Below are positions 39,449 through 57,927 of a DNA stretch of 57,927 nt, piece by piece. The DNA comes from a virus (lineage: Duplodnaviria > Caudoviricetes), in IMG/VR virus record IMGVR_UViG_3300036773_000056, positions 1 through 57,927 of that record, one strand, 5' to 3'. The stretch's first letter is position 1. Every line of letters starts with the position of its first letter. Below the pieces are notes generated by a model. That model saw only the letters and a program-made list of their open reading frames with translations, ran no database searches and was not told the DNA's origin. Both the position numbers and the translations under genes were made by a program.

Positions 39449-39523
39449 CCCGCCGCAGGGACCCAATCCTCGAGGATTTCCCCCGCAAGGCGCGGGGGTT
39501 TTCGCATGTCAGGAGACCGTTAC

Positions 39524-40669
39524 GTGATTCCCCCGCACATGATCAAGGCGATCGAGCAGCACGCCGAGGCGCACGGCGACCACGAGCGTGCCGCGCAGGC
39601 CCGCGCCACGCTGGCCGTGACGCACGCGCACCGCGAGCAGCGCCGCCACACCCCGCCCCGCGGCGACGCCGGATGCGGCGTGCTCGCCGAGCTGCGCGCG
39701 TTCGAGGCGTGGGTCCTCGCCGAGCTGGCGAAGCTGGTCGACCTCATCACCGGCCAGGACGGCGACGGCGGCGGTTCGCCGGCGCCCACCGACCCCGGCA
39801 CCCCGAGCCAGCCGGGCACCCCGAACCGGTCCATCCTGGACGGTGAGGGCGACGAGGACAGCGCAGACGACACCCTCGTCCGCGCCGAGGGCGCCCCCGC
39901 CGTGACCGACGCCTCGGTGAACAACGCGTACGACGGGCTCGGCGACGTGTTCGGCTACTACGAGCAGGTGCACGGCCGCGACTCCCTCGACGGGAAGGGT
40001 CTACCGCTGGTCGGCGTCGTCCACTACGGCCAGGCGTACGACAACGCGTTTTGGGACGGCCAGGCGATGCGGTTCGGCGACGGCGACGGGCAGGTGTTCG
40101 GCGACTTCACGGGGTGCCTCGACGTCATCGGGCACGAGCTGACGCACGGCGTCACGCAGTACACGGCCAACCTCGACTACCAGGGGCAGAGCGGCGCACT
40201 CAACGAACACATCTCGGACGTGTTCGGGATCCTGGTCAAGCAGTACCGGGCAGGTCAGGCCGCGGCCGACGCGGATTGGCTGATCGGTGAGGGCCTGCTC
40301 GCCGAGGGTGTGAAGGGCCGGGCGCTGCGCGACATGCTGCACCCCGGTACGGCGTACGACGACCCGCAGCTCGGCGTCGACCCGCAGCCCGCCGACATGG
40401 CGCACTACGTGGACACGGCCGAGGACGACGGCGGCGTGCACATCAACTCCGGCATCCCGAACCGCGCGTTCGCGCTCGCCGCGACCGCGCTCGGCGGGCA
40501 CGCGTGGGAAACGGTCGGGCCCGTCTGGTACAGCGTGCTGACCGGCGGCCACCTTCCCACCTCCTGCGACTTCGCGGCCTTCGCCGCCGCGACCCGTACC
40601 GCTGCCGCGGCCGTGTCGCCCGAGGTCGCCGCGGCCGTCGACCAGGCGTGGACCACGGTCGGCCTCTGA
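39524..40669 (+). CDS. M4 (protealysin/thermolysin-like) zinc metalloprotease
   Basis: IPPHM propeptide, YDNAFWDG, HELTH, GALNEHISD, GGVHINSGIPN. Confidence 0.92.
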   Translation: MIPPHMIKAIEQHAEAHGDHERAAQARATLAVTHAHREQRRHTPPRGDAGCGVLAELRAFEAWVLAELAKLVDLITGQDGDGGGSPAPTDPGTPSQPGTPNRSILDGEGDEDSADDTLVRAEGAPAVTDASVNNAYDGLGDVFGYYEQVHGRDSLDGKGLPLVGVVHYGQAYDNAFWDGQAMRFGDGDGQVFGDFTGCLDVIGHELTHGVTQYTANLDYQGQSGALNEHISDVFGILVKQYRAGQAAADADWLIGEGLLAEGVKGRALRDMLHPGTAYDDPQLGVDPQPADMAHYVDTAEDDGGVHINSGIPNRAFALAATALGGHAWETVGPVWYSVLTGGHLPTSCDFAAFAAATRTAAAAVSPEVAAAVDQAWTTVGL

Positions 40670-40757
40670 ACACCGCGCGCGCCCGCGCGGACGCACCCCA
40701 CCCCGCACTTCGGCCCCGGCAGCGTGCCGGGGTTTCCCCATTTCAGGAGACACGCAC

Positions 40758-41003
40758 ATGCTCACTTCCATCGTTCGTACCGTCGTCCCGATGATCGTCG
40801 GCGTCGTGATCGTCCTCGCGGCCCGCGCCGGCCTGCACATCACCGGCGACACCTCGGTCACGGAGGTCGTCACCCTCGGCGTCTCGTCCGTCTACTACCT
40901 GGCCGTGCGGCTGCTGGAGAAGGTGCGCCCGTACTTCGGGTGGCTGCTCGGCAAGGCTTCCCAGCCGGTGTACGTCGCGGCCCGCCGCAACACCGCCCGC
41001 TGA
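40758..41003 (+). CDS. Holin-like 2-TM protein
   Basis: SIVRTVVP..VG...YY..VRLLE...FGWLLG. Confidence 0.7.
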   Translation: MLTSIVRTVVPMIVGVVIVLAARAGLHITGDTSVTEVVTLGVSSVYYLAVRLLEKVRPYFGWLLGKASQPVYVAARRNTAR

Positions 41004-43180
41004 TGGCCCGCCGCTACGACCGGGGGGCGTGGCGGGCAGAGGACAGCGCGGGCAACGTGATCGCCGGCGCTGAGGCCACCTGTTGGGCCGCCCTGACGGG
41101 CGGCTCGCAGGCGGCCAACCTCGCCCGCATCACCGCCGATGGCGGGATCGGCGAGCCGATCCCCGGCGGCGTGCTCGTGGCCGACGCCTGGGGGTACATC
41201 GACGGTTTCTGGGACCTGGCCGACACCCCGGACCTGTACATCATCGGCGCCACGTCGGGCGTGATCCCAGGCGTTCAGCGCGTCCACCTGGAACCGACCG
41301 ACCTTGACGACCAGCTCGCCCCGCTGCCCGGCCAGATCGCCGGCGCCGCGGCCCGCCTCGACGCGATCGACGCCGCGACGGGCGCACCCGGCGGGTACGC
41401 GACCCTCGACGCCGAGGGGCTGCTCGTGGCCGCGCAGCGCCCACCCGCCGAGGGTGGGGGAGACGGCGGTGGCGGCCCGGTCATCCTCGCCCGCGTGGAT
41501 GAGCTCCCGAACCCGTACTACGTCGGCCACCGCGGCAGCGGCGCGTTCCTCGCCCCGGAGGGCACCCCCGAGTCGTACCGCGTCGGGTACCTGCTCGGCT
41601 TGGACGCGCTCGAAATCGACGTGTTCGTGGCCGCGGACGGCTCCCTGATCTGCATGCACGACACGACCGTGGACCGCACCACCACCGCCACCGGCAGCTC
41701 CAGCGAATACAGCGCCGCAGCGTTCGCGCGGCTGGTCGTCGACGCCGCGACGTGGTTCGGCGGCGGGCAGCCGGACACGCGCCCGGTCACCCTGCGGGAG
41801 ATGCTCGACCAGTACGGCGGGCGCGTCGTGCTGCTCCTCCACGTCCACGACCCCGCGTCGACCGCGGGCGCGATCACGGAGGTGCAGCGCCGGCAGCTCG
41901 ACGCGTCGTGCATCTTCCAGACTTTCGACCGTTCCGACGCGTTGAGCGTCGTGGCGGCCGGCCTCCACGCGCAGCTCCTGATCGGCACGGAGGCGCAGGC
42001 CACCGCGGCGCCGCCCGCTCAGGTCATCACGGACGGCATCGAGCGCGTGTCGATCGCGGGCTCGGGCGCCGTCTCCAACGCCACGATTTCCGGGTACATC
42101 ACGGCGGGGGTCACGACCGGCGTGTACGACGTGTCCCGCCAGTACCAGCACGCCAACGCCCTCACGCTCGGCGTACGGATGGTGGACGGCGACGACTCGA
42201 TCTACGCGCGGGCCGCGACCGGCCGGTACCGGCGCACCACGGACCCCTGGCGGTTCGGCGCCGGCTACTACCACGGCCACCAAACCAACCTCACGAGCGC
42301 CGCCGCCGTCAGCCCCGCCGAGCGCGGTTTCATCGGCCGCGGCCCGATCCCATGGACCACGCCGACCATGCTGAACTCGTGGACGGCATTCGGGTCCGGG
42401 TGGCAGGCGCAGGGCTACCGGCGCGGCCAGGACGGGCGCGTGTACCTGCGTGGCGTCATCGCCAACGGCGCCGCCGGGAACGCCGCGTTCACCATCCCCG
42501 CGTGGGTGGGGCGACCGCCGAACAACTACAACTCCGCGTCCATCGCGTCGGGTAGCAACCCGCCGTCTCTGTGCCGTCTCCAGATCTCGACCAGCGGCGA
42601 CGTGACCCCGCAGAACGCGGTGGGCACCTTCGCGTCGATCGATACAGCATTCGAGCCGGTCGACGACCCGATCAAGGGGGTGTCCGTACTGCCCGGCTCG
42701 ACGCCGTGGCTTCTGCTCTGCGGGTGGGCGTGCCCGCTGGCGGCCCCGACCGGGTACACGTTCACGTTCTCCGCCCGTTGGGACACGCTGGGGGCGTCCG
42801 CGACCAGGTGGGCCGGGGCGTACTTCTCCGCGCTGCGCGACCACCCGTACGACGACACGGCCACCGACACCCTCAACTCCGGGTACTCGGTGATCTTGCG
42901 GCAGAACGGGTCGCTGGAGCTGTACCGCAAGGACCCCGGCGTGACCACCCAGCTCGGCGCGTCCGTCGCGACGCCCGCGATCACCGCGGGGACGGACACG
43001 CAGATTCGGGTCACCATCTCCGGCAGCTCGATCACCGTGACCCGGGTCGACGCTGTGACGCCGAACTCGATCACCGCCACCGACAGCACGTACCGCGGCC
43101 CGTACGTCTACGTCGGCCGCCACGCCACGTCCGCGGCGCTCGGCCCCGGCATCACGTTCCACGACGCGTCGATCACGTGA
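41003..43180 (+). CDS. Tail-type protein with a glycerophosphodiester phosphodiesterase (GDPD) domain
   Basis: GHRG...APEGT, LEIDV, MHDTTVDRTT; N-terminal GAPGGYATLD tail motif; beta-rich C-terminus. Confidence 0.85.
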   Translation: MARRYDRGAWRAEDSAGNVIAGAEATCWAALTGGSQAANLARITADGGIGEPIPGGVLVADAWGYIDGFWDLADTPDLYIIGATSGVIPGVQRVHLEPTDLDDQLAPLPGQIAGAAARLDAIDAATGAPGGYATLDAEGLLVAAQRPPAEGGGDGGGGPVILARVDELPNPYYVGHRGSGAFLAPEGTPESYRVGYLLGLDALEIDVFVAADGSLICMHDTTVDRTTTATGSSSEYSAAAFARLVVDAATWFGGGQPDTRPVTLREMLDQYGGRVVLLLHVHDPASTAGAITEVQRRQLDASCIFQTFDRSDALSVVAAGLHAQLLIGTEAQATAAPPAQVITDGIERVSIAGSGAVSNATISGYITAGVTTGVYDVSRQYQHANALTLGVRMVDGDDSIYARAATGRYRRTTDPWRFGAGYYHGHQTNLTSAAAVSPAERGFIGRGPIPWTTPTMLNSWTAFGSGWQAQGYRRGQDGRVYLRGVIANGAAGNAAFTIPAWVGRPPNNYNSASIASGSNPPSLCRLQISTSGDVTPQNAVGTFASIDTAFEPVDDPIKGVSVLPGSTPWLLLCGWACPLAAPTGYTFTFSARWDTLGASATRWAGAYFSALRDHPYDDTATDTLNSGYSVILRQNGSLELYRKDPGVTTQLGASVATPAITAGTDTQIRVTISGSSITVTRVDAVTPNSITATDSTYRGPYVYVGRHATSAALGPGITFHDASIT

Positions 43181-48019: not shown

Positions 48020-48511
48020 TCAGTTGGTGGTGAGGGTGGCGAGCTGGTCGGCGATCTCGCCGAGCCGGGTCGGGTCGGCGATGGGGCCGCTGGCCGCGAG
48101 CTGGCGTAGCTCGGCGACGGCTGCGGCGATGGTCTCGTGGGCCGCGGTCTCGTCGAGGTTCCGGCCGCAGTCGGCGCACGTCTCGTCGAGGTTCCGGCCG
48201 TGGTCGCACCGCGTGGTGATGCGGTAGAGCCGCATGGCCGCGTCGGCGAGGTCGTCGGCGGTGAACGTGATGGGCGGGGTTGCGAGGGTTTCGCCGTGGG
48301 CGAGGCCGCCGGGGGAGAGGTAGACGGTGCCGCGGTGCTCGGCGACGTCGGCCGCCGGGTCGTCCACGTAGACGTCGTATGTTGGGTCGTCGCCGTCCCA
48401 GCGGGTGGCGGTCACCTCGACCTGCTCGCCGTCCGGTCCCTTGGGGAAGACGCCGAATTCCTCGGCGGTGCCGTTCCGGATCTCCTCGTCGAGGTCGTCG
48501 GCGTTGATCAT
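48020..48511 (-). CDS. Acidic hypothetical protein with a GRNLDET duplication
   Basis: GGAG RBS; 21-bp direct repeat at 48147 and 48180. Confidence 0.65.
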   Translation of the reverse strand: MINADDLDEEIRNGTAEEFGVFPKGPDGEQVEVTATRWDGDDPTYDVYVDDPAADVAEHRGTVYLSPGGLAHGETLATPPITFTADDLADAAMRLYRITTRCDHGRNLDETCADCGRNLDETAAHETIAAAVAELRQLAASGPIADPTRLGEIADQLATLTTN

Positions 48512-48540
48512 GTGGTCTCCCGGGGGGTGCGGTCGTTTGG

Positions 48541-48684
48541 TCAGCGGGTCGTCTTCGCGTGCTCGGTCTCGATGTACCACCGGACGAGCAGCCGCAGGTG
48601 GCGGAACCCGCCGTAGATACCGGCGAGAGCGAGCGCGGCGAGCACCGACGATAGGACGTCGGGGTGCACGTACATGGTGTACAT
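48541..48684 (-). CDS. 47-aa single-TM peptide (not in the ORF track)
   Basis: GGAGG RBS; MYTMYVHPDVLSSVLAALALAGIYGGFRHLRLLVRWYIETEHAKTTR. Confidence 0.55.
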   Translation of the reverse strand: MYTMYVHPDVLSSVLAALALAGIYGGFRHLRLLVRWYIETEHAKTTR

Positions 48685-48750
48685 CAGTGGTCCTCCGTGG
48701 ACTGTGGGGCCACGGCCCGCCCCCGGAGGGGCGGACCGAAGTCCGACAGG

Positions 48751-49173
48751 TCACGCGTTCGGGGCGATCCGCAGCCCGTTGGTGGTGCGGTAGAGCCTTT
48801 CGCCGCAGTGCCGGCACCGGATGCGGGCGGAGACGGGTCGGCCGATGACCACGCCGGCGCCGTCGCGTTCCGGGCCCTCGGTCTCGTGCGTGCAGGCGGC
48901 GTCGAGCGCGGCGCGGATGATCGCCTCGGCGGCGGTCTCCGTGCTCGGCCGCTGCGCGGCCCACGCGTTGAATGCGGCGTCGGCCTCGGGGTGGCGGGCG
49001 GTCAGAGCCTCGATGATGACCATGCGGGACATGTTGGCGGCGCGGCCGTCCTCGGTGCGGGTGTTGCTGTAGTCCTCGGCCTCGGCCATGCGCAGCGCGT
49101 CGCACAGGGCGGGCGTGGTCTGTCGCTCGGCGAATGCCGTCATCTTGTCGATTGCCTGCGCGATTGTGGCCAT
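48751..49173 (-). CDS. Hypothetical protein with a C-terminal zinc ribbon
   Basis: GGAGGG RBS; CRHCGE. Confidence 0.7.
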   Translation of the reverse strand: MATIAQAIDKMTAFAERQTTPALCDALRMAEAEDYSNTRTEDGRAANMSRMVIIEALTARHPEADAAFNAWAAQRPSTETAAEAIIRAALDAACTHETEGPERDGAGVVIGRPVSARIRCRHCGERLYRTTNGLRIAPNA

Positions 49174-49225
49174 GTTGCCCTCCGGGGCGTTTGCCGGTGG
49201 CCGCCTTGCCGACCTCCGAACGTAG

Positions 49226-49253
49226 GAACACCATAACAGTCATTATGGTGGGA
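49226..49253. other. dif-like Xer-family recombination site
   Basis: GAACACCATAA-cagtca-TTATGGTGGGA (11-6-11 with a CATAA/TTATG core). Confidence 0.5.
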
Positions 49254-49330
49254 GTGAAGAGACTGCGTGAACTTTCATGGATGAACATTCGCGTATGGAC
49301 ACGAACATTAACGTCCGCTACTGTGTGGGC

Positions 49331-49843
49331 ATGGAACGAGAGATCAGCATCGACAAGGCGCGGCCGGAGCTCGGCCGCCTCGTCGACGACGCCGCAATCG
49401 ACGGCACCATTACGTACCTGACCCGCCGCGGCCGGCGCTTCGCAGCCCTCGTGCCCCTCGCCCTCGTTGATGCGCCGGCCACGCCCATGCCGGAACTCGG
49501 CGATCACGTCGACCTGTGGGACACGCCCCGCGGGCTGATCATCGCCCGCGGCTTCGACGCCTTGTACCTGTTGCCGACCGGCTACCTCGGCCGGTTCGCC
49601 GCCGACGCTGCGGCGTGGACCGACGCGGGCACGCTCGCCCCGCCGGTCGACGGCGTGGTGCCCGTCGAGTTCGAGGCAGTCACGGACGCCACGACGCCGG
49701 CGAGCTGGTCCCCGGAGGATGGCGTCGTGGTGCTCGTCGATAACGAGGTCGACGCCGAGGGGTACACGATGACGGCCGCGGCCCGCCGGTACCTCGGATA
49801 CGAGGATGCCGCCCGCGTTCATCCTGATGCTGCCGCCGAGTGA
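49331..49843 (+). CDS. Phd/YefM-like N-terminal domain fused to an unknown acidic domain
   Basis: ISIDKARPELGRLVD.A......YLTRRGRRFAALVP; TGGACA-17-TACTGT promoter. Confidence 0.75.
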   Translation: MEREISIDKARPELGRLVDDAAIDGTITYLTRRGRRFAALVPLALVDAPATPMPELGDHVDLWDTPRGLIIARGFDALYLLPTGYLGRFAADAAAWTDAGTLAPPVDGVVPVEFEAVTDATTPASWSPEDGVVVLVDNEVDAEGYTMTAAARRYLGYEDAARVHPDAAAE

Positions 49844-49887
49844 CACACCCCCGCGCCACGATGGACACCCACACCACGGAGGACACC

Positions 49888-50454
49888 ATGACCAGTAACG
49901 CGACCACCACGTACGTGTTAACGATCGTGCGCGGCGAGCAGCCCGACGGCACCGGCGGCGAGTTCGGCAACCCGAACGAAACGCCCTACCTCGCGGACGT
50001 GCCGGACGAGGTGCACGCCTGGTTTGCGGCGAACGGCGTCCAGGAGGACGACCCGGACGTCTGGGTGCTCGTGACCCGTGCCGAGGACGTCGAGCACGCG
50101 CCGATCTGCGCGACGAACGTGATCGCTTCCCGCGAGATCACCGTCGACGACACGACCGAGATCTACAGCAACACCGGCGGGCGCGGCCTCGGCTCTTACC
50201 CGCTGCTCGACCGGGTGCAGGAGCTCATCCCGGACCGGGAGGAGGCGCACGCCTGGATCTGGTCAACGATCGATCAGCTCGCCGGGATCGGCGAACAGCC
50301 GATCATCAGCGAGCGGCCCGTACGCCCCGAGCTGCTGACGTACAACCCCCGTGACCTGGACGTCGACTACTGGTACACGATCAGCCAGGCCACCGCGGAC
50401 GAGATCGTCGAGGCCATCACCGCGGGCTTCGCTACCAGTGACGACCTGGACTAG
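49888..50454 (+). CDS. Acidic hypothetical protein convergent with the CRISPR mini-array
   Basis: GGAGG RBS; D/E rich. Confidence 0.75.
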   Translation: MTSNATTTYVLTIVRGEQPDGTGGEFGNPNETPYLADVPDEVHAWFAANGVQEDDPDVWVLVTRAEDVEHAPICATNVIASREITVDDTTEIYSNTGGRGLGSYPLLDRVQELIPDREEAHAWIWSTIDQLAGIGEQPIISERPVRPELLTYNPRDLDVDYWYTISQATADEIVEAITAGFATSDDLD

Positions 50455-50467
50455 CCCCGGGACATGC

Positions 50468-50499
50468 GAAGGGCCTCCCCCTGAGGGGGGAGGCCCTTC
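50468..50499. terminator. Bidirectional hairpin closing both the acidic gene and the array transcript
   Basis: gaagggcctcccc...ggggaggcccttc. Confidence 0.75.
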
Positions 50500-50775
50500 C
50501 GCTATCCCCACGGGTGTGGGGCGGTGGTTCCCTCGTGCTAGCCAATCACGGGCCATCCCCGCAGGTGCGGGGAGCAGTGATGCAACCTTGCCCGATCTGG
50601 ACCAACCCCGCAGGCGCGGGGAGCAGCGATCCGATCGACCTGACAGGCGGATCATCCCCGCGTGCGCGGGGAGCAGTTCATCGAGCGAACTCGCGAACGG
50701 ACCATCCCCGCAGACGCGGGGAGCACACCTAGACGAACCTGACATAAGGGTCATCCCCGCAGGCGCGGGGAGCAG
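50498..50775 (-). CRISPR. Orphan type I-E-like mini-array: 5 repeats plus 1 degenerate repeat, spacers of 20-22 nt
   Basis: 29-nt repeats at 50549, 50598, 50648, 50698, 50747 (minus-strand consensus CTGCTCCCCGCGCCTGCGGGGATGGTCCG); degenerate copy at 50498; no cas genes in the circle. Confidence 0.92.
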
Positions 50776-50785
50776 AACGGGAACC

Positions 50786-50814
50786 ACGCTACACGCCGCA
50801 CCCGCCCGCCGGAA
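50786..50814 (-). promoter_or_regulatory. Candidate array promoter
   Basis: TTCCGG-17-TAGCGT; the -10 box ends 10 nt before the first repeat. Confidence 0.45.
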
Positions 50815-50831
50815 GACACTCCCGGGATGCA

Positions 50832-50867
50832 CGAACGCCCCGACCGTACGGGCAGTCGGGGCGTTCG
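50832..50867. terminator. 13-bp-stem hairpin upstream of the array
   Basis: cgaacgccccgac / gtcggggcgttcg. Confidence 0.6.
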
Positions 50868-51003
50868 CACCCTCGGGGGCGTCACATCGGATGATCACCC
50901 GGTGAGGGGCTCCCACGGGGCGGGCGGTGACCGTGTACGAGCGAGGCTGATGTCGCTGGTGTACTGGAGTCTCCGCCCGCCGGGAGCGTTCGGGGGGCGC
51001 CGG

Positions 51004-51372
51004 TCAGGCCGGCGCGGGTTCGTCTCCGCCGGTGTCGTCCTGCGTGAGGCCGGACAGGGCGCCGATCGTGGTCCGGTACCGGGTCGCGTGTTCTAGCGCC
51101 GGTTCGAGCGCCGCGTCGAGGTCGTTCAGGGCACCGGCGGCGCGGCCCACCTGATCCTTGGGGCTGTCCGCGGTGTCGCTGAACAGCACCTGCCGCATCG
51201 GTAGCCCGTCGACGGCGTTCGCCAGCCCGCCGGCGAGGTCGTCGAGCTTCCCGACGAGCGTCACGAGGAGGTCGGCGGCCTCGCGGGCGTCGTCGAGCGT
51301 GAGCGGCTTGCCGGGGTTCGTCCGGTCGTATCCGGCGAGGGCGTCGGCGGCTTGTCTCAGGTGATCCATCAT
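51004..51372 (-). CDS. Helical hypothetical protein
   Basis: MMDHLRQAADALAG...; normal codon pattern. Confidence 0.65.
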   Translation of the reverse strand: MMDHLRQAADALAGYDRTNPGKPLTLDDAREAADLLVTLVGKLDDLAGGLANAVDGLPMRQVLFSDTADSPKDQVGRAAGALNDLDAALEPALEHATRYRTTIGALSGLTQDDTGGDEPAPA

Positions 51373-51622
51373 CGTGGGCGTCCTGGTCCTGGTCGCGTAC
51401 GGGGTGGGCGGGGTGCGGTGGGTGTGCACGGGTCCAGGCGACCCACCGCACCCCGGGTTGCGCCGCGCGTTCCGGTGTCGCCTGCCCGGGGGTCGACCGG
51501 GGGTGGCACGCGCGGCGCGGGAGGGGGCAGGCGTCCGGCGACCAGCCAGGCCGTTCGTTGGGCGCCCGCCCGCGGGTTGGGGGGCGCGGCCGGTGTGCGA
51601 AGGTCCGGGCACGCCCCCCTGC

Positions 51623-51919
51623 TCAGGTGCTCGGACCGTCCCCCGGCCCGAGCATCCGGGCAGCTCTGGCGGCGGCCATGCCGGGGATGGTGGCCGGGCC
51701 GAGGACCACGGGGGGTCCGTCGTCGTCGATGTCCGCGACGTAGGCGAGGCGGACGACGACGTTGCGGTAGTCGCGGGGGACGCTCTTGTCCGTCGCGAAG
51801 ACGCCGACGCGATCCCCGGGGAGCGCGCCGTGGCCGATCCCGTCCGGCAGGTGCTCGGTGAACGCGTCCATGAGCGCGGCGGCGCTGCTCTGCGTGGGCA
51901 CGTCGTGGCTGGTCGTCAT
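51623..51919 (-). CDS. Hypothetical protein
   Basis: 98-aa ORF with plausible composition. Confidence 0.55.
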   Translation of the reverse strand: MTTSHDVPTQSSAAALMDAFTEHLPDGIGHGALPGDRVGVFATDKSVPRDYRNVVVRLAYVADIDDDGPPVVLGPATIPGMAAARAARMLGPGDGPST

Positions 51920-52013
51920 GGGTGCTAATCCTGCCGACCTGCGCCGCGTTGACCAGGGACGCCGTGTCCTAGCCGCGCGGTTTTCTCAGGTGCCGGTAGG
52001 ACGCGACGTCCTA

Positions 52014-53225
52014 TCACTGCATGTCAAGGCTGCGCATGAGTGATCGCAGGTCAGGGGTGAGGCGCCGCTCCCGCTCGGCCAGGTCCTCGACAACGGCGCG
52101 CGCGATCGGCTGGTGCCGGAACCACACGGCGCCGGACGCGTTCCGCGCCTCGCGCATGGTCGCGGTCGCCGCCTTGTGGTGGCGGGCGTCCAGGTGCGAA
52201 CGCCCGACGTCGAGGAGGTGCGCCCCCACGCTGATGCCTTTCAGGTCGCTGCGGTCGAGGTGCCGGGCGACGTCGAGCGCTCGGCCCGGTTCGCGCATCA
52301 CCGACCAGGCGTGCGCCGCCTGCATCCGGGCGCTTGTCGGGCCAAACGCTGTCTCGTACACGTCGACGCGGCGGCCGAGGCGCTCGCCGGCGGCGAGCGC
52401 CGTAGCGATCAGGTCGGACACGTCCCGCTCGGCTGCGGCCCGCGGCGCGAGCGCGGTCACGAGCAGGTTCCCGTACGTCGCGATGTGGTGGGCCGGTGCG
52501 GAAAACGACGGCTCGATGCGGGTCGCGACGTCGGTCGCGACCCGCTCGGCCTCGTCGAAACGCCCTTGGTGGAGCATCACCCATGACGCCGTTCCTGTGA
52601 CGGTCGCCCACTGGTGCTCGTCGTCCCCGGTCTCGGCGGCCCGCATCGCACGCTCGGCGGCGACGAGGCCGAGGTCGTCGCGGCCAACCTGCGTGAGTAG
52701 GCAGGCCGCGAGCTGGTACGCCTGCGCCAGCGAGCCGGCCGCGGCGGGTCCTGCCGTGCGGGCGCAGAGCCGCGCCTCGCCGATCAGCGCGGGGAGCGCC
52801 CCGGCCAAACCCTCGAAATCGCCCGACCAGTACCGGCGCCATCCGGCGGCGATGGTGCCGCGCAGCTCGGCGACGCCGGTCGGGTCTCCGGTGTCGGCGG
52901 GGTCGATGCCGGGCAGGTGGTCGATCCTGGTGAGGGCGTCCCGGATGGCCACGATGGCGGGCCCGTCGTCGCCGTGTGCGAGCCGCGGCCGGCGGCCGGT
53001 CAGGTCGGACAGGTCGACGTCCAGGGCATCCGCGAGCGCCGAAAGGGTCGAGAGCCGCGCGGACTGGCGGCGGCCCTGCTCCAATTTCGCGATGACGTCG
53101 CGGGACTTGTCGGCGCGCTCGGCTAGCTGGTCTTGGGTCAGGTGAGCGTCGCGGCGCAGCGACCGCAGCCGGTCGCCGATCGGGGCGTCTGCGGGAAGGG
53201 GGCGCGTGTTACGGTCGGGGGGCAT
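52014..53225 (-). CDS. XRE-family regulator with a helical/TPR-like C-terminus
   Basis: IGDRLRSLRR..HLTQDQLAERA..S...IAKLEQG; FGPTS motif. Confidence 0.88.
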   Translation of the reverse strand: MPPDRNTRPLPADAPIGDRLRSLRRDAHLTQDQLAERADKSRDVIAKLEQGRRQSARLSTLSALADALDVDLSDLTGRRPRLAHGDDGPAIVAIRDALTRIDHLPGIDPADTGDPTGVAELRGTIAAGWRRYWSGDFEGLAGALPALIGEARLCARTAGPAAAGSLAQAYQLAACLLTQVGRDDLGLVAAERAMRAAETGDDEHQWATVTGTASWVMLHQGRFDEAERVATDVATRIEPSFSAPAHHIATYGNLLVTALAPRAAAERDVSDLIATALAAGERLGRRVDVYETAFGPTSARMQAAHAWSVMREPGRALDVARHLDRSDLKGISVGAHLLDVGRSHLDARHHKAATATMREARNASGAVWFRHQPIARAVVEDLAERERRLTPDLRSLMRSLDMQ

Positions 53226-53349
53226 CGGCCCGGTCCTCTCGTGGGTGGCGTGGTAACCCCCACGGTAGGCGCCGGGCCTCTTACATGTCAGCGCCCCGCC
53301 GGGGGAACGGTCCCGGCGGGGCGCTGTTGCGCGCGGTGCGGCGCGCGGT

Positions 53350-53547
53350 CTACCGGCGGAGCAACAGAATCCGGGCGACCGCGCAGACGCCCGCGGCGAG
53401 CGCGATCACGGTTGCGATGATCCGCCAGCGCGGCGACGCGATCGCCAGGCCGAGCGCTACACCAAGCACCCCCAACGGGGCCAAGGTGAGGCAAAGGGCA
53501 CCGAGCCGGACGCCCCCGCGATCGGGTGCGCGTGGTGGGATATGCAT
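53350..53547 (-). CDS. Small 2-TM protein (Spd-like)
   Basis: Hydrophobic; follows the DUF2637 gene. Confidence 0.6.
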   Translation of the reverse strand: MHIPPRAPDRGGVRLGALCLTLAPLGVLGVALGLAIASPRWRIIATVIALAAGVCAVARILLLRR

Positions 53548-53647
53548 ACCGGCCTTCCGTGAGGGGGTTCGGTAAGGCGGGCCCGGGGTGCTGTCCAGGC
53601 GACCGGGCCCGCCCTCTTCGTGTTACTGCGTCCGTTCGTTGTATCGC

Positions 53648-54937
53648 TCACACGGTGGCGAGCGCAGCATCGTCCCTGGCCGTCGCACGCGGGTGCGCGG
53701 CCCGGAGGACGCTCGCACAGCGGTCCAATTCGCCGTTGCCTCCGGTGATTCCGGCATCACGCAGCGAATCGCGTGATACGTACCGGCCGGAACTGGTCAG
53801 GTTCTTTCCTGCTCTGATCAGGTCGGGAATCTTCGCGTCGTCCGTGATCTTGGACAACTCCCCCGCCGTACGGTCGTCCGTCCACCGCTCCCCGCTTGGA
53901 TCGTCCGCGCCGTCGTCCACGGGGTCGCCGTCGGCGGGCGGCTGTACGGCGCCGAGGTGGCGGCCGGCGGACGCCGACGCCGTACCGTCCGTGCCGTCGT
54001 CTGGACGTCCACGCTCTGCCCACTCGGCGACCAGGCGGGCGGCGTAGTCGCGCAGCGCCTCGGGCTCGACCCAGGGCATGACATCGGCGAGCACCGCCGC
54101 AATCGCGGACGCGTCCATGCCCTGGTCAAGCAGCGCGCGCACGGCGGCGAACTGCTCGCCTTCGTCGGACTGCGGACGTTCGTCCACGTTCGTCCGGACG
54201 ACCGGTGCCGGGGCGCCGTCCGGGAGCTCCGGCGCACCCACGGGCGCGTCATCGGCGGCCACCGCGGCGCGGGCCGCGGCCAGGTTGACGCGGGCGCGGA
54301 CAAGCCGCCCGGACGTTCCCGCGGACATGTCCGCGAGGGTGACGGCGAGACGCGCGCGGGCCCGCGCGGCGCGGCGCCGGCCACCCCACAGCGGCCACGA
54401 GGCGACGCGCGCGGACAGCCGCGCGGCGGCGTCCGCGGACAAGTCGACCGGCTCGACGTCCGCGCTCTCCGCGCTGTCCGTACGGTCGTCGACGGGCTCG
54501 GCGGCGCGGCGCGCGATGACCCGCTTGGCGAGCTGCAACCCGAGGACGAGGCCGAGCCACGCGGCGACCGGCGGCACGGCCGCGGTGCCGTGCACGGTGG
54601 CGCCGCCGGCGACGTGCCCCACGTTCCCGGCGATGCTCACGACGAGGCCGCCGATGGTGACGCCCCACGCGAGCAGGCGCCCGGACCAATCCCACCGCTC
54701 GATCACCGCGACCAAGAGAGTCAGCTCTCCGACCAGGATGAACGTATCCACCTGCAACGGCCAGGCGATCGCCCACGCGCCGGAGAGCCCGTGCTCAGCG
54801 GCCCATTCGTACAGGCCGCGGTACGACTCGGCGAACGCCACGCCGTCGAGCGCGGCGACCGCCAAGGCGACGGCGGCCAGGGCGACGGTACGCAGCGCGC
54901 GGAGGGTGCGCGGTACCGCGGTGAGGGTGCTATTCAT
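53648..54937 (-). CDS. DUF2637 / SpdB-like plasmid spread membrane protein
   Basis: AFAESY..L...A..HG.....A..WPLQVD; SIAGNVGH; AAVPPVA. Confidence 0.8.
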   Translation of the reverse strand: MNSTLTAVPRTLRALRTVALAAVALAVAALDGVAFAESYRGLYEWAAEHGLSGAWAIAWPLQVDTFILVGELTLLVAVIERWDWSGRLLAWGVTIGGLVVSIAGNVGHVAGGATVHGTAAVPPVAAWLGLVLGLQLAKRVIARRAAEPVDDRTDSAESADVEPVDLSADAAARLSARVASWPLWGGRRRAARARARLAVTLADMSAGTSGRLVRARVNLAAARAAVAADDAPVGAPELPDGAPAPVVRTNVDERPQSDEGEQFAAVRALLDQGMDASAIAAVLADVMPWVEPEALRDYAARLVAEWAERGRPDDGTDGTASASAGRHLGAVQPPADGDPVDDGADDPSGERWTDDRTAGELSKITDDAKIPDLIRAGKNLTSSGRYVSRDSLRDAGITGGNGELDRCASVLRAAHPRATARDDAALATV

Positions 54938-54972
54938 GCTGCCCTTTCCAGGGTGATGTGACGGTGCGTGTT

Positions 54973-55076
54973 GTGACTGTGAGCTGTGACTGTGACCGTG
55001 ATCCGTGCTGGTAGATACCCCCACGTCACACCCGTACGGGGCGCGCGCGGAGATCACAGTCACAGCTCACAGTCAC
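54973..55076. repeat. clt-like locus: 23-bp perfect inverted repeat made of GTGA units
   Basis: gtgactgtgagctgtgactgtga at 54973-54995 and its reverse complement at 55054-55076, immediately after the traB stop. Confidence 0.7.
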
Positions 55077-55082
55077 GGATAG

Positions 55083-57050
55083 TTACTGGTTTCCGGTGGC
55101 GTACCGGCCGTACGCGGCCTTGACCACCTGGCCCTCGTCGACCATCGCGGAAAGCCACCGCTGCACGGTCTCGCGGGTGACCTCGATCCCGGACTCGACC
55201 AGGCGGCCGTGGAGGATGGCCGGTCCGGTCCCCCGCTCGCCGTACTCGGCGAGGATGTCGAGCAGCCGGGCACGGCCCTCGTGACGCTCGCCTCCCCCGC
55301 CGCCGGCGTCCGCCTCGGCCTCGGGGTCGACCTTCGCCAGCTCGGCAAGCTCGGGGTCGGCCTCGACCAGCGCGTCGAACGCGGCCCGGTCCGGCGACGG
55401 CGCCGCCGCGGCCGGCCGCAGGCCGAGGCGGTCGGCGGTGGCCTGCCCACCCTCGGACGGGGCGAGCACCGCGGTAGCGGCGGCGGCGTTCGGGTCGGCG
55501 TCCGGGTGCAGGTGCCCGGAGCGCTGCTGCGCCCACCGGTCGGCATAGTCCGGTCCCGCCGCGCGCAGCGACAGGTCGTCGAACGCCGGCCGCCGAGCGG
55601 TGAGCATGCGGGCGATACCGGGGATCTGCTCGTACTCGATCCGGTCGCCCTTCGCCCGGGCGAGCCGGGACCGTGCCGACATCTTGACCAGCATCGACCC
55701 CGGGTGTTCCATCGCCGCGAGCCATTTCGATGCCGCCGTGTCGTCCGGGAACACCTGGCGGGCGTCCCCCTCGGACGCGACGCCGAGCCCGACCGTGGTG
55801 CCGATCTGCGATTTCAGGTCACCGTCGCCGAGCATGGTCACGGTGCCGCGCTGCCCGGCGATGCCGATCTTGACGCCCTCTGACCGGCCTTTACGCACCA
55901 GCGTCTTCACGGCCTCGCGGTTGATACGGGACTCGGCGATGTCCGTGAATTCGTCGATGACGATGACCAGCTCGGGCACCTGCGCGGAGATCGCGACCTG
56001 CTCCGTTCCGAGGCGGGCCGCGGAACGGGCCTTGTAGATGCGGACGGCCGCGGCCAGGAGGCGCGTCCATTCGGCCTCGGTGGTCGCCGGCCAGTCGATG
56101 ACCGGCCGGTCCGTCTCCCCACGGAACCACGGTTCGAGCCAAGGGGCGATCATCCGGCCGCCCTTCGGGTCGATCACCCACACGATGCGCTCTGGCGACT
56201 GGAGGAACCGGGCCAACAGGACGTTGATCAGGTTGGTTTTCCCGCCGCCGGTGATGCCGATCACCTTCATGTGCTTGTCGGTCGTCATCTCGACCGGCGC
56301 CGCATCCTCGAACAGGCCCGTACGGAACGGCGTCCCTGCGGGTACCGGGTCGAGGTCCATCGGGAACGGGATCGTCTCGGCGAGGATGTCGCGCGTGTTG
56401 AACTGGATCACCACGTCACGGGCGTACTTGCCGCGCTCGACCGTCACCGCGCCGTCGCGGATGCGCCCGTGCGCGATCTCGATCGCCTCCGAGCCGTTAC
56501 GGAGCTGCGCGAGGGTCATCCCGCGGCCCATCTGCATGTGCAGCGCGAACCCTGCCCGGGTCTCGCGGTACTCGACGAAACGCATCCGGCGGAAACCCGC
56601 GCGTTCCATCATCCGTACCCACTGCGCGCCGTCGCGGCCGGCCTGCATCGTGATCGCCTCCGCTGAGCGGGATACCCGCCCGGCGGCGATCTGCGCGGCG
56701 GCGCGTGGCCACAGCGGGCCGAGTATGGCGCCCCCGCCGCCCGCAAGCGCAACGGCCGGCGGCCAGTGCCACGGCGACCAGAGCGCGACCCAGAACAGCC
56801 ACGCCCCGGCGTAGAGCACCGATCCTGCGATCCACATGCGCGGCCATCCGGCGATACCGGCCATGGTGGCGCCGATGACGGCGCCGCACACGCCGAAGAT
56901 CGTCAGCCACGCCACCACCGCCCGCGGAACCCCCGCCGTGTCCACCAGGGCGCCGAGCGCCCCCGTGATGGCTACCGCGACGGCCGGCCCGAGGATCGGG
57001 CTGTGGTGGCGGACCGGCCGCGGCTGAGGGCGGGTGTTTGTCCTGGTCAC
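55083..57050 (-). CDS. traB: FtsK/SpoIIIE-type conjugative DNA translocase TraB
   Basis: N-terminal transmembrane segments, Walker A GITGGGKT, Walker B VIVIDEF, GQR motif, C-terminal wHTH. Confidence 0.9.
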   Translation of the reverse strand: MTRTNTRPQPRPVRHHSPILGPAVAVAITGALGALVDTAGVPRAVVAWLTIFGVCGAVIGATMAGIAGWPRMWIAGSVLYAGAWLFWVALWSPWHWPPAVALAGGGGAILGPLWPRAAAQIAAGRVSRSAEAITMQAGRDGAQWVRMMERAGFRRMRFVEYRETRAGFALHMQMGRGMTLAQLRNGSEAIEIAHGRIRDGAVTVERGKYARDVVIQFNTRDILAETIPFPMDLDPVPAGTPFRTGLFEDAAPVEMTTDKHMKVIGITGGGKTNLINVLLARFLQSPERIVWVIDPKGGRMIAPWLEPWFRGETDRPVIDWPATTEAEWTRLLAAAVRIYKARSAARLGTEQVAISAQVPELVIVIDEFTDIAESRINREAVKTLVRKGRSEGVKIGIAGQRGTVTMLGDGDLKSQIGTTVGLGVASEGDARQVFPDDTAASKWLAAMEHPGSMLVKMSARSRLARAKGDRIEYEQIPGIARMLTARRPAFDDLSLRAAGPDYADRWAQQRSGHLHPDADPNAAAATAVLAPSEGGQATADRLGLRPAAAAPSPDRAAFDALVEADPELAELAKVDPEAEADAGGGGGERHEGRARLLDILAEYGERGTGPAILHGRLVESGIEVTRETVQRWLSAMVDEGQVVKAAYGRYATGNQ

Positions 57051-57849
57051 TGGTTCTTCACGTCCCAGAACTCTTCACCCGGCCGCGGGTGCTCGCGGCG
57101 GGCGATCTCCGTCTCGTGCTGGCCGCGGTAGATGCGCTCGGCCTCCATCGCGTGGTCGGACGCGCCGGCCATCTGCCCGCCCATGTCCCGCAGGTGGTCG
57201 AGGAAACGAGGGTCGAATGGCTTCTCGTCGCCGAGACGGTCGGCGAGGCCGGTCAGCCCCTCGGCGTGGGACTCGTAGACCGCGGGCAGGTCACGTACGA
57301 AGTTCTGGAACTCCTCCGGGTTCTCCGGGGTGTAGCCGGCGACTTGGCGGAGCGCTTCCACGGCGTTCTGGATGATCGGGTGACTCACGGGTCGTTCCCC
57401 TCCTCGGATCGGTGCGGGTGGTGTGATCGGCGGCCCCGAGCTGGTCGCGGCCGGCCGGTTGGTGAAGGTGATTGGGGCGGTCGGGTCGACGACGCGGTGC
57501 CGCCCGCGGGCGGCGAGGCGGCGCAGCAGCGGCGCGCCGGCGACCGCGTGGCCGAGGCGCAGCAGCGTCGCGGCGGGGAGGCGCCACACCGGGCCGACCG
57601 TGTGGCGCAGCCATCCGGTGAGGTTGCGGGCGCGGACCGCGCGCAGGCGGCGGTGCGCGCCGTGGCCGCGCGCCGTCACCCGGAGCCCCCCGTACGTACG
57701 GGACCGTCCGACGCGGCGCCGGACGCGCGCGGCGGCGCGGCCGGTCCGGCGGGCGAGCATCCGCGTGCGCCACGCCGCGGCGCTGGCGAACCGGCCGCTG
57801 CCGCGGCGTACGGCGCGGACCGTACGGCGAACGCGGCGACCGTGGACGC
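57047..57849 (-). CDS. traA: TraA-like protein, C-terminal part (whole ORF about 639 aa across the junction)
   Basis: C-terminus HETEIARREHPRPGEEFWDV resembles actinomycete TraA; coupled to traB. Confidence 0.75.
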
Positions 57850-57927
57850 CGAGCCTGCGCCGCATGTTGACCGCGCGGCGCAGGCGTCGGGGGGGCGGCC
57901 CGCCCGGGGGGGCGCGGGCGGCGCGGC
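57850..57927. repeat. Terminal overlap with positions 1-78 (circular junction)
   Basis: Ungapped alignment, 67/78 identical; mismatches in the end copy are mostly to G or C, like read-end errors. Confidence 0.9.

Follow-up and report, generated by a model that had tools for sequence, protein, structure and literature searches.

The closest described counterparts of the locus reported here are the virus-encoded CRISPR RNA (crRNA)-like elements named Cracr. Our locus is a type I-E CRISPR array with 20-22 nt spacers, found in the viral record IMGVR_UViG_3300036773_000056 (Duplodnaviria; Caudoviricetes), whose 57,927 nt were analyzed in full and are hereafter called the window. Liu et al. describe 219 Cracr candidates, 64 of them in 30 arrays, defined by at least nine matches to the host regulators CreR or CreA on the side proximal to the protospacer adjacent motif (PAM) (bioRxiv 10.1101/2024.10.29.618823). 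The type I-E arrays in that account include 16 with two guides and 4 with three, and an I-E array of a Salmonella prophage, with guides of 24 and 21 nt, undergoes Cas-dependent processing and silences casA (bioRxiv 10.1101/2024.10.29.618823). Guides of I-F Cracrs, 17-21 nt long, lead to complexes short of two backbone subunits, and the same preprint proposes that Cracrs act in two ways, through competition for Cas proteins and through promoter repression. The 219 candidates include IMG/VR records, and the record studied here may be among them.

Other described systems are also close to this array. Racrs, the RNA anti-CRISPRs of Camara-Wilpert et al. (2023), are solitary repeat units that sequester Cas6 and Cas7, and one of these, RacrIF1, is devoid of a 5′ handle, its complex with Cas6 and Cas7 being aberrant (PMC10651486). 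Hosts carry regulatory mini-arrays of the CreR type in their I-E loci, as described by Shmakov et al. in 2023 (PMC10120712). In Escherichia coli, Kuznedelov et al. (2016) report that a crRNA whose guide is trimmed by 12 nt, to 20 nt, still undergoes processing by Cas6e, assembles with fewer Cas7 subunits and retains binding, yet interference is nearly lost, with no protection against phage or transformation and only weak plasmid loss (PMC5159557). Virus-borne mini-CRISPR arrays involved in interviral conflict have been described by Medvedeva et al. in 2019 (PMC6858448). An initial interpretation of the window, made from its letters alone (the sequence-only reading), had taken the array for candidate short guides or decoys that hijack host Cascade. 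The premise of that reading regarding shortened spacers agrees with the published E. coli results, while its idea was not novel: short-spacer viral Cracr arrays (bioRxiv 10.1101/2024.10.29.618823) and RNA anti-CRISPRs (PMC10651486) had already been described, and the mechanism that it put forward is essentially the published one.

The array occupies positions 50498-50775 of the window and consists of five good repeats of type I-E, each 29 nt long, together with a sixth that is degenerate. The five good copies start 49, 50, 50 and 49 nt apart, and the spacers measure 22, 20, 21, 21 and 20 nt from low to high coordinate. The sequence-only reading had reported five repeats and a degenerate sixth at a period of about 50 nt, which the coordinates and a count of core-pattern matches bear out. 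It had also given the five spacer lengths exactly as they stand, although it listed the spacers on the plus strand, while the I-E sense strand is the minus strand. On the minus strand, each repeat displays five bases, a G+C stem of 6-7 bp, a four-base loop and an eight-base tail that would serve as the 5′ handle of the RNA that follows. The good repeats come first and the degenerate copy comes last, running straight into a hairpin at 50459-50508. Given the sense strand, the degenerate copy is thus the trailer end and the leader is located at 50776-50831.

This putative leader of 56 nt (minus strand), which would contain the promoter, lies between an upstream hairpin and repeat 1. It is followed, always on the minus strand, by the leader-proximal repeat 1 with its I-E type hairpin (50747-50775), spacer s1 (20 nt, 50727-50746), repeat 2 (50698-50726), s2 (21 nt, 50677-50697), repeat 3 (50648-50676), s3 (21 nt, 50627-50647), repeat 4, in which the first base of the 5′ handle is changed (50598-50626), s4 (20 nt, 50578-50597), repeat 5 (50549-50577), s5 (22 nt, 50527-50548) and the degenerate terminal repeat 6 (50498-50526). 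Compared to the I-E repeat of a candidate host genome, G001, presented below, repeats 1 to 5 are identical at 22, 24, 24, 23 and 24 of 29 positions, respectively, with repeat 2 agreeing at 24 of the 25 positions outside the loop, and repeat 6 is identical at 17 of 29. The stem of repeat 6 is kept by a paired change, its arms being CCCCAC and GTGGGG in place of CCCCGC and GCGGGG. The hairpin at 50459-50508 is a strong G+C hairpin, terminator-like in its predicted fold but without a T run, with 23-nt arms that are 83% complementary. It adjoins the array end on the minus strand and is also located 3′ of a plus-strand open reading frame (ORF) that ends at 50454. On the other side, a perfect 13-bp hairpin (50832-50867) separates the array from a minus-strand ORF ending at 51004. 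Placed between these two hairpins, the array looks like a separate transcription unit.

A pattern of the repeat core spanning 21 positions, with up to two mismatches allowed, matched the window 7 times against 0.10 matches expected from 100 shuffles, and 0 of the 100 shuffles reached 7. Five of the seven matches are the array, every one of them on the minus strand. Tandem Repeats Finder reported nothing at the array because the spacers are mutually unrelated. Rfam gave no match there at either gathering or E-value thresholds, which is unsurprising for a library search of a 29-nt element, and a megablast of positions 49000-52500 against phages and plasmids returned no match. The fold of the whole array is dominated by repeat-repeat pairing and says little. 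All six repeats differ from one another in loop or handle, and the stem is kept in every one. Divergence in loop and handle together with a conserved hairpin points to long-term selection on RNA structure, and not to recent insertion by Cas1-Cas2.

In its repeat length (28-29 nt), I-E stem-loop and 8-nt 5′ handle region, the array is a canonical I-E array. It departs from one in its spacers, which are 20-22 nt long instead of the 32-33 nt or so set by Cas1-Cas2, and it displays neither identical repeats nor adjacent cas genes of the families searched. Profiles of Cas6e, Cas7e and Cse1 produced 0 matches each in the six frames of the window, other cas families not having been searched. The earlier statement that no cas gene is present therefore stands for these three families.

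The likely host of the element is G001, a metagenome-assembled genome (MAG) of the Streptosporangiaceae. An 8-kb stretch of G001 is 100% identical to window positions 48069-56068, array included. Its I-E locus encodes Cas3, Cse1, Cas7, Cas5, Cas6e and Cas1 and is flanked by arrays of period 61, while Cse2 and Cas2 were not picked up among the submitted ORFs of the locus. Outside the loop, its repeat agrees with the five good repeats of the window at 21-24 of 25 positions. The host I-E system that the sequence-only reading had called for was thus found in this candidate, with an I-E effector set and a resembling repeat. Among public sequencing runs, one DNA run, which may be its source, contains the stretch, and no RNA run is listed with it.

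To place the spacer length in context, we sampled 301 genomes of the family of G001, of which 85 displayed Cse1, and took 130 I-E loci, each covering the region that begins upstream of cas3 and ends where cse1 starts. Over about 1,230 pairs of adjacent repeats, the period was 61 in 1,127 pairs, 62 in 64 and 60 in 20, and periods of 60-62 make up 1,211 of about 1,235 adjacent pairs. Rarer periods were 63 (7 pairs), 59 (5), 49 (2) and 53 (2), and a few others occurred 1-3 times each. Both 49-nt periods are regulatory mini-arrays beside cas3, and the repeats of the adaptive arrays of this family are identical. This distribution indicates that host adaptation does not make 20-nt spacers, in agreement with the earlier suspicion that the spacers of the window are abnormally short. 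A spacer length of 20-22 nt is that of regulatory mini-arrays and of arrays carried by mobile elements, and not that of adaptive ones.

The mini-arrays of the host family, which include single repeats with a degenerate partner, are located just upstream of cas3 or of the leader. Their guides (n=13) comprise eight of 20-21 nt and five of 31-32 nt. For 11 of the 13, the locus contains a second site matching positions 1-5 plus 7-11 with at most one mismatch, and these sites often differ from the guide at positions 6 and 12. An AAC or AAT flank is present at ten of the 11 target sites, where simple arithmetic gives a chance expectation of about 0.01 flanked sites per guide per 6.3-kb locus. The recurrence of this flank indicates that AAC/AAT is the PAM of the I-E systems of the family, and the mini-arrays look like CreR-type autoregulators as described in PMC10120712. 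The flanked partial targets of the short mini-array guides show that the I-E systems of the family of G001 make regular use of short regulatory crRNA-like guides. These partial targets lie 100-350 bp away from the mini-arrays (loci L214, L219, L228, L260, L224, L233, L261, L242, L255, L257, L218, L206 and L209). Meanwhile, a single 20-21 nt spacer among 32-nt ones was observed in three ordinary long I-E arrays, two from metagenomes (L410 and L411) and one from a Propionicimonas MAG (L109). Such lone spacers, about 12 nt shorter than their neighbors, could be the outcome of deletion or of aberrant integration.

Arrays with a period of about 50 nt, for which the sequence-only reading had proposed a search in related phage-plasmids, recur in viral and metagenome contigs. 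A repeat-pair pattern with periods of 46-54 found matches in 64 viral contigs. Spacer lengths in the pattern-matched viral loci peaked at 20 nt (46) and 21 nt (29), versus 2-6 for each of the lengths 17-19 and 22-25; these counts include the five spacers of the window and eight loci judged to be palindromes resembling repetitive extragenic palindromic (REP) elements. An orientation-specific viral scan covering periods of 37-67 gave, among the 80 loci listed, 57 with periods of 60-62 and 13 with periods of 47-51, 3 of these 13 being REP-like. Many of the viral short-period arrays mix spacers of 20-21 and 32-33 nt. Eight contigs came from a scan of metagenomes, four with more short-guide mini-arrays and two with ordinary arrays holding one 20-nt spacer.

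Several families of guides turn up in more than one contig even though the repeats of those contigs have diverged, and arrays often hold variants of one guide. Related short guides from other contigs agree best at positions 7-11 and 13-14 and least at 15-20, with a drop at positions 6 and 12. This pattern is as would be expected of Cascade guides, though it is a weak signal in which one family predominates. One guide family of 20-21 nt is present in at least 12 viral or metagenome contigs with diverged repeats (loci L014, L025, L030, L035, L046, L047, L060, L065, L070, L072, L406, L408, L409 and L412). Its middle is conserved, its 3′ end is variable, and a 14-nt guide often goes with it. Inverted-symmetric REP-like pairs, which are not I-E repeats, are likewise matched by the generic stem pattern in viral contigs (L015, L022, L024, L027, L041, L043, L063 and L069). 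Such pairs are also found at many proteobacterial loci among L073-L152, and the generic-pattern counts include them.

When compared to the described systems, the anatomy of the window array matches the Cracr class and borders on the Racr RNA anti-CRISPRs. With Cracrs as described, it shares carriage by a mobile element without cas genes (of the three families searched here), mimicry of the host repeat, short guides and the presence of several units in one transcription unit, a putative one in the window. The predicted hosts of Cracrs include Actinomycetota, and an effector with fewer backbone subunits is reported for Cracrs and proposed here. The array lies on a viral element outside any CRISPR-cas locus, together with terminase, coat, RecT and integrase genes. 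Its units resemble the repeat of a host linked to it by binning, and its guides of 20-22 nt are shorter than the immune spacers of 32 nt. One difference is in number, as the I-E Cracr arrays described have two or three guides and the window array has five. The array appears to fit the Cracr class in where it lies, in its mimicry of the host repeat, in the length of its guides and in its multiplexing, while within the sample searched it lacks the match to CreR or a promoter by which the class is defined. We somewhat favor regarding it as a further Cracr-like member with more units than the described arrays.

Other comparisons are less close. Racrs share with the window array the mimicry of repeats by phages, a subtype that fits the host system and competition for Cas proteins, the last being proposed for the window. 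Nevertheless, arrays and mini-arrays were filtered out of the Racr search as described, and the window units have both handle and hairpin (PMC10651486). Instead of a single repeat without a partner within about 100 bp, the window holds six repeats at a period of 49-50, and a handle-like 8-mer close to that of the host precedes each guide. The CreR-type mini-arrays of hosts have the same repeat type, and 8 of 13 examples in the host family have guides of 20-21 nt. They differ in that each has one guide and lies inside the cas locus with a PAM-flanked partial target nearby, whereas the window array has five guides, no cas neighbors of the families tested and no detectable target. The shortened-spacer Cascade was a laboratory construct directed at fully matching targets, whereas the window guides are natural and fixed at a short length. 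Finally, the arrays of Medvedeva et al. are cas-less viral arrays that use host Cas proteins, as we propose for the window, but the spacers described for them are of normal length and match related viruses, while those of the window are short and no viral match was found for them.

Based on these findings, we postulate that the window carries a Cracr-type array, an explanation to which we give slightly better than an even chance. The minus strand from about 50830 to 50460 would be transcribed as one unit between the two hairpins, and host Cas6e would cut at the base of each repeat hairpin. The products would be five RNAs of 49-51 nt, each with a normal 8-nt 5′ handle, a guide of 20-22 nt and a 21-nt 3′ hairpin. 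Each RNA would then nucleate a shortened Cascade with four Cas7 subunits instead of six. These short complexes would draw Cas proteins away from immune crRNAs, and they would also bind DNA that matches in part and is flanked by a PAM, with no effective cutting by Cas3, acting as repressors of targets outside those sampled. Viral Cracr arrays, as mimics of the CreR regulators of their hosts, are described as behaving in the way proposed here. The spacer targets that the sequence-only reading had asked for did not emerge in the window, in G001, in the 130 I-E loci or among the IMG/VR hits inspected, and with no target found for any of the five spacers, guide and decoy modes are both conceivable. 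Two of the guides are related to each other: s1 and s3 have in common an in-register run of 8 nt at positions 3-10, a value reached in 28 of 20,000 shuffles and in 176 of 20,000 random sets of window k-mers.

Several results weigh against this explanation, most of them from the search for targets. Within the window, no site had four or fewer mismatches to the full length of any spacer, and no seed match was present. The G001 genome contained no AAN-flanked seed match for s1, s2, s3 or s5, and a single one for s4, located in a small ORF, identical at 12 of 20 positions and at about the chance rate. Across the 130 I-E loci, the AAN plus seed search found 0 perfect-seed sites, and allowing one seed mismatch gave 4 sites, versus 1-9 in ten shuffles. 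Searching IMG/VR with N at positions 6, 12 and 18 returned 7, 0, 1, 2 and 0 matches for s1 to s5; the eight s1 and s3 matches were inspected and the two s4 matches were not. The seven s1 matches are in contigs of 32-42% G+C, and the s3 match has no AAY flank. In 401 genomes of the order, the handle joined to the s1/s3 seed matched without mismatches only in the contig of G001 itself. Allowing one mismatch gave 23 matches versus about 18 for a reversed control, and two array matches among the nine inspected loci are ordinary 32-nt spacers. When compared to 4,092 collected spacer strings, the window spacers proved unrelated to all of them, with 12 of 20 positions as the best agreement.

Further points on this side concern the comparison with Cracrs and the host. 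In G001 and the 130 loci, no guide matched CreR or CreA, nor a PAM-flanked cas or creT promoter, while the same scan found targets for 11 of the 13 host mini-array guides. As these loci come from 85 of 301 genomes, CreR or promoter variants outside this partial sample are possible. The I-E locus of G001 itself displayed no detectable CreR-like mini-array for the element to mimic. None of 1,216 host spacers matched the window, which gives no sign of CRISPR pressure on the element, and the link to the host is made through metagenomic binning and repeat similarity. A scan with consensus promoter and terminator models found no sigma-70 promoter in the leader and did not call the hairpin at 50459-50508. 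Lastly, relatives of the neighboring ORF 49840-50454, sought as a guide to a homologous array, were absent from the viral and metagenome contigs.

Some resemblances of the guides were rejected or left as unproven. Over its first 13 nt, s3 agrees with a conserved coding site of cas3 that immediately follows the HD motif; the agreement is perfect in one locus (L222), and about 20 of the first 41 loci have one seed mismatch. This site was rejected as a target because its flank is not a PAM and because 315 of 1,986 random 21-mers of the window have an anchored match of at least 13 nt. Spacer s5 resembles two host mini-array guides (L228 and L260) and s1 resembles one viral guide (L042), in both cases out of register, and these likenesses are unproven. 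Meanwhile, the other viral short guides gave 1 match in the 130 host loci versus 0-8 in shuffles, and thus the host-locus search does not confirm a guide function for the viral short-guide class.

The absence of targets in every space searched is what a pure Cas sponge would predict. Under this explanation, the crRNA-like RNAs would tie up Cas6e, Cas5, Cse1 and Cas7 in short harmless complexes without any DNA target, as a multi-copy, full-handle version of an RNA anti-CRISPR. The lack of a detectable CreR-type autoregulator in the G001 locus would favor it, as sequestration would then go uncompensated according to the argument in bioRxiv 10.1101/2024.10.29.618823. Little self-damage would be expected as well, because short guides give no phage or transformation protection and weak plasmid loss (PMC5159557). 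On the other hand, a sponge needs neither the s1/s3 seed-region run, which is beyond chance, nor the 5′ guide parts that other arrays of the class keep, and the Racrs described are solitary repeats without a 5′ handle, unlike the window units (PMC10651486). We consider the sponge unlikely, though less so than the alternatives that follow. Guides directed at rival mobile elements or at host genes, for superinfection exclusion or host reprogramming by shortened Cascade, appear improbable to us. There are known cases of viral mini-arrays directed at related viruses (PMC6858448), and none of the I-E loci searched has a target. Nevertheless, 2.9 million IMG/VR contigs yielded no near-exact, plausibly flanked match among those inspected, G001 has none beyond chance, and only weak interference is expected of 20-nt guides (PMC5159557).

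We find it equally improbable that the array is an inert remnant, that is, a decaying piece of a host CRISPR array or CreR mini-array picked up by the element. Such decay would account for the degenerate terminal repeat, for the mutual differences between repeats and for the missing targets, and ordinary host arrays do in rare cases contain a lone spacer of 20-21 nt (L410, L411 and L109). It would not account for five spacers that all fall within 20-22 nt, for hairpin stems that are intact in six of six repeats, one of them via a paired change, for a cassette of its own between two hairpins, or for the recurrence of this architecture in many unrelated viral contigs. That the repeats are unrelated to CRISPR and represent clustered REP-like palindromes or terminators is scarcely credible, even though the generic repeat-pair pattern also matches palindromic pairs in many proteobacterial genomes and some viral contigs. 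Beyond the stem, the repeat flanks too match the I-E repeat of G001, which nearly refutes this explanation, and the uniform orientation and regular period of the array also speak against it. Having weighed these alternatives, we retain the Cracr-type array as our preferred explanation.

The gene content of the window provided insights into the element that carries the array. The record is of the linear class, 86% complete according to CheckV, with a G+C content of 72%. It encodes RecT, a small-terminase-like helix-turn-helix (HTH) protein, a large terminase, a P22-type coat protein and a tyrosine integrase, and the nearest relatives of the large terminase are from Streptomyces phages, at about 62% identity. 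In our preferred explanation, the element is temperate and actinophage-like, and the array is a cas-less set of crRNA-like RNA genes that it carries. The sequence-only reading had described a complete circle, which gives way to a linear record with no exact overlap of its ends, and its framing of the element as a phage-plasmid was not confirmed. A direct repeat of 41 nt with one mismatch is present at positions 1-41 and 57851-57891; it could represent att-like repeats or an effect of assembly. Downstream of the phage tail genes, positions 39506-43180 encode a thermolysin-type M4 peptidase and a large GDPD-domain protein.

The array is flanked by a pair of plus-strand ORFs (49277-49843 and 49840-50454) and by minus-strand ORFs without assigned function. 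The first ORF of the pair displays a weakly Phd/YefM antitoxin-like N-terminus and overlaps by four bases with the second, which encodes 204 aa without a family. This may be a toxin-antitoxin-like or anti-defense pair beside the array. To the right of the array, positions 52014-57865 encode an HTH-TPR regulator (phrog_5823), a DUF2637 protein and an FtsK/SpoIIIE-type ATPase, which adjoin phage genes. They resemble the transfer module of actinomycete integrative conjugative elements.

Two bolder possibilities, which even together we hold to be rather unlikely, are that the guides act on targets outside CRISPR loci in multiplex silencing, or that the array serves as a Cascade sponge made of full-handle units tuned to 20-22 nt. 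If the former were true, it would amount to phage-run multiplex transcriptional silencing of host genes or of rival elements not yet sequenced. If the latter were true, each RNA would use up a single copy each of Cse1, Cas5 and Cas6e for as little cost as possible, in CreR-less hosts such as G001. Either would extend the Cracr and Racr concepts.

Collectively, these findings bring to light, in little-studied soil actinomycetes, putative natural crRNA-like RNAs that are fixed 12 nt short, which is equivalent to two Cas7 units. With five units, the array is the largest of its kind among the I-E arrays in the literature compared here. A search seeded with CreR would miss such an array, as not one of its guides has a match to a CreR or promoter in the sample. 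The window array offers a direct test case for guide versus sponge action, and the family of G001, rich in CreR-like mini-arrays with an AAC/AAT PAM, would provide the matched host system.

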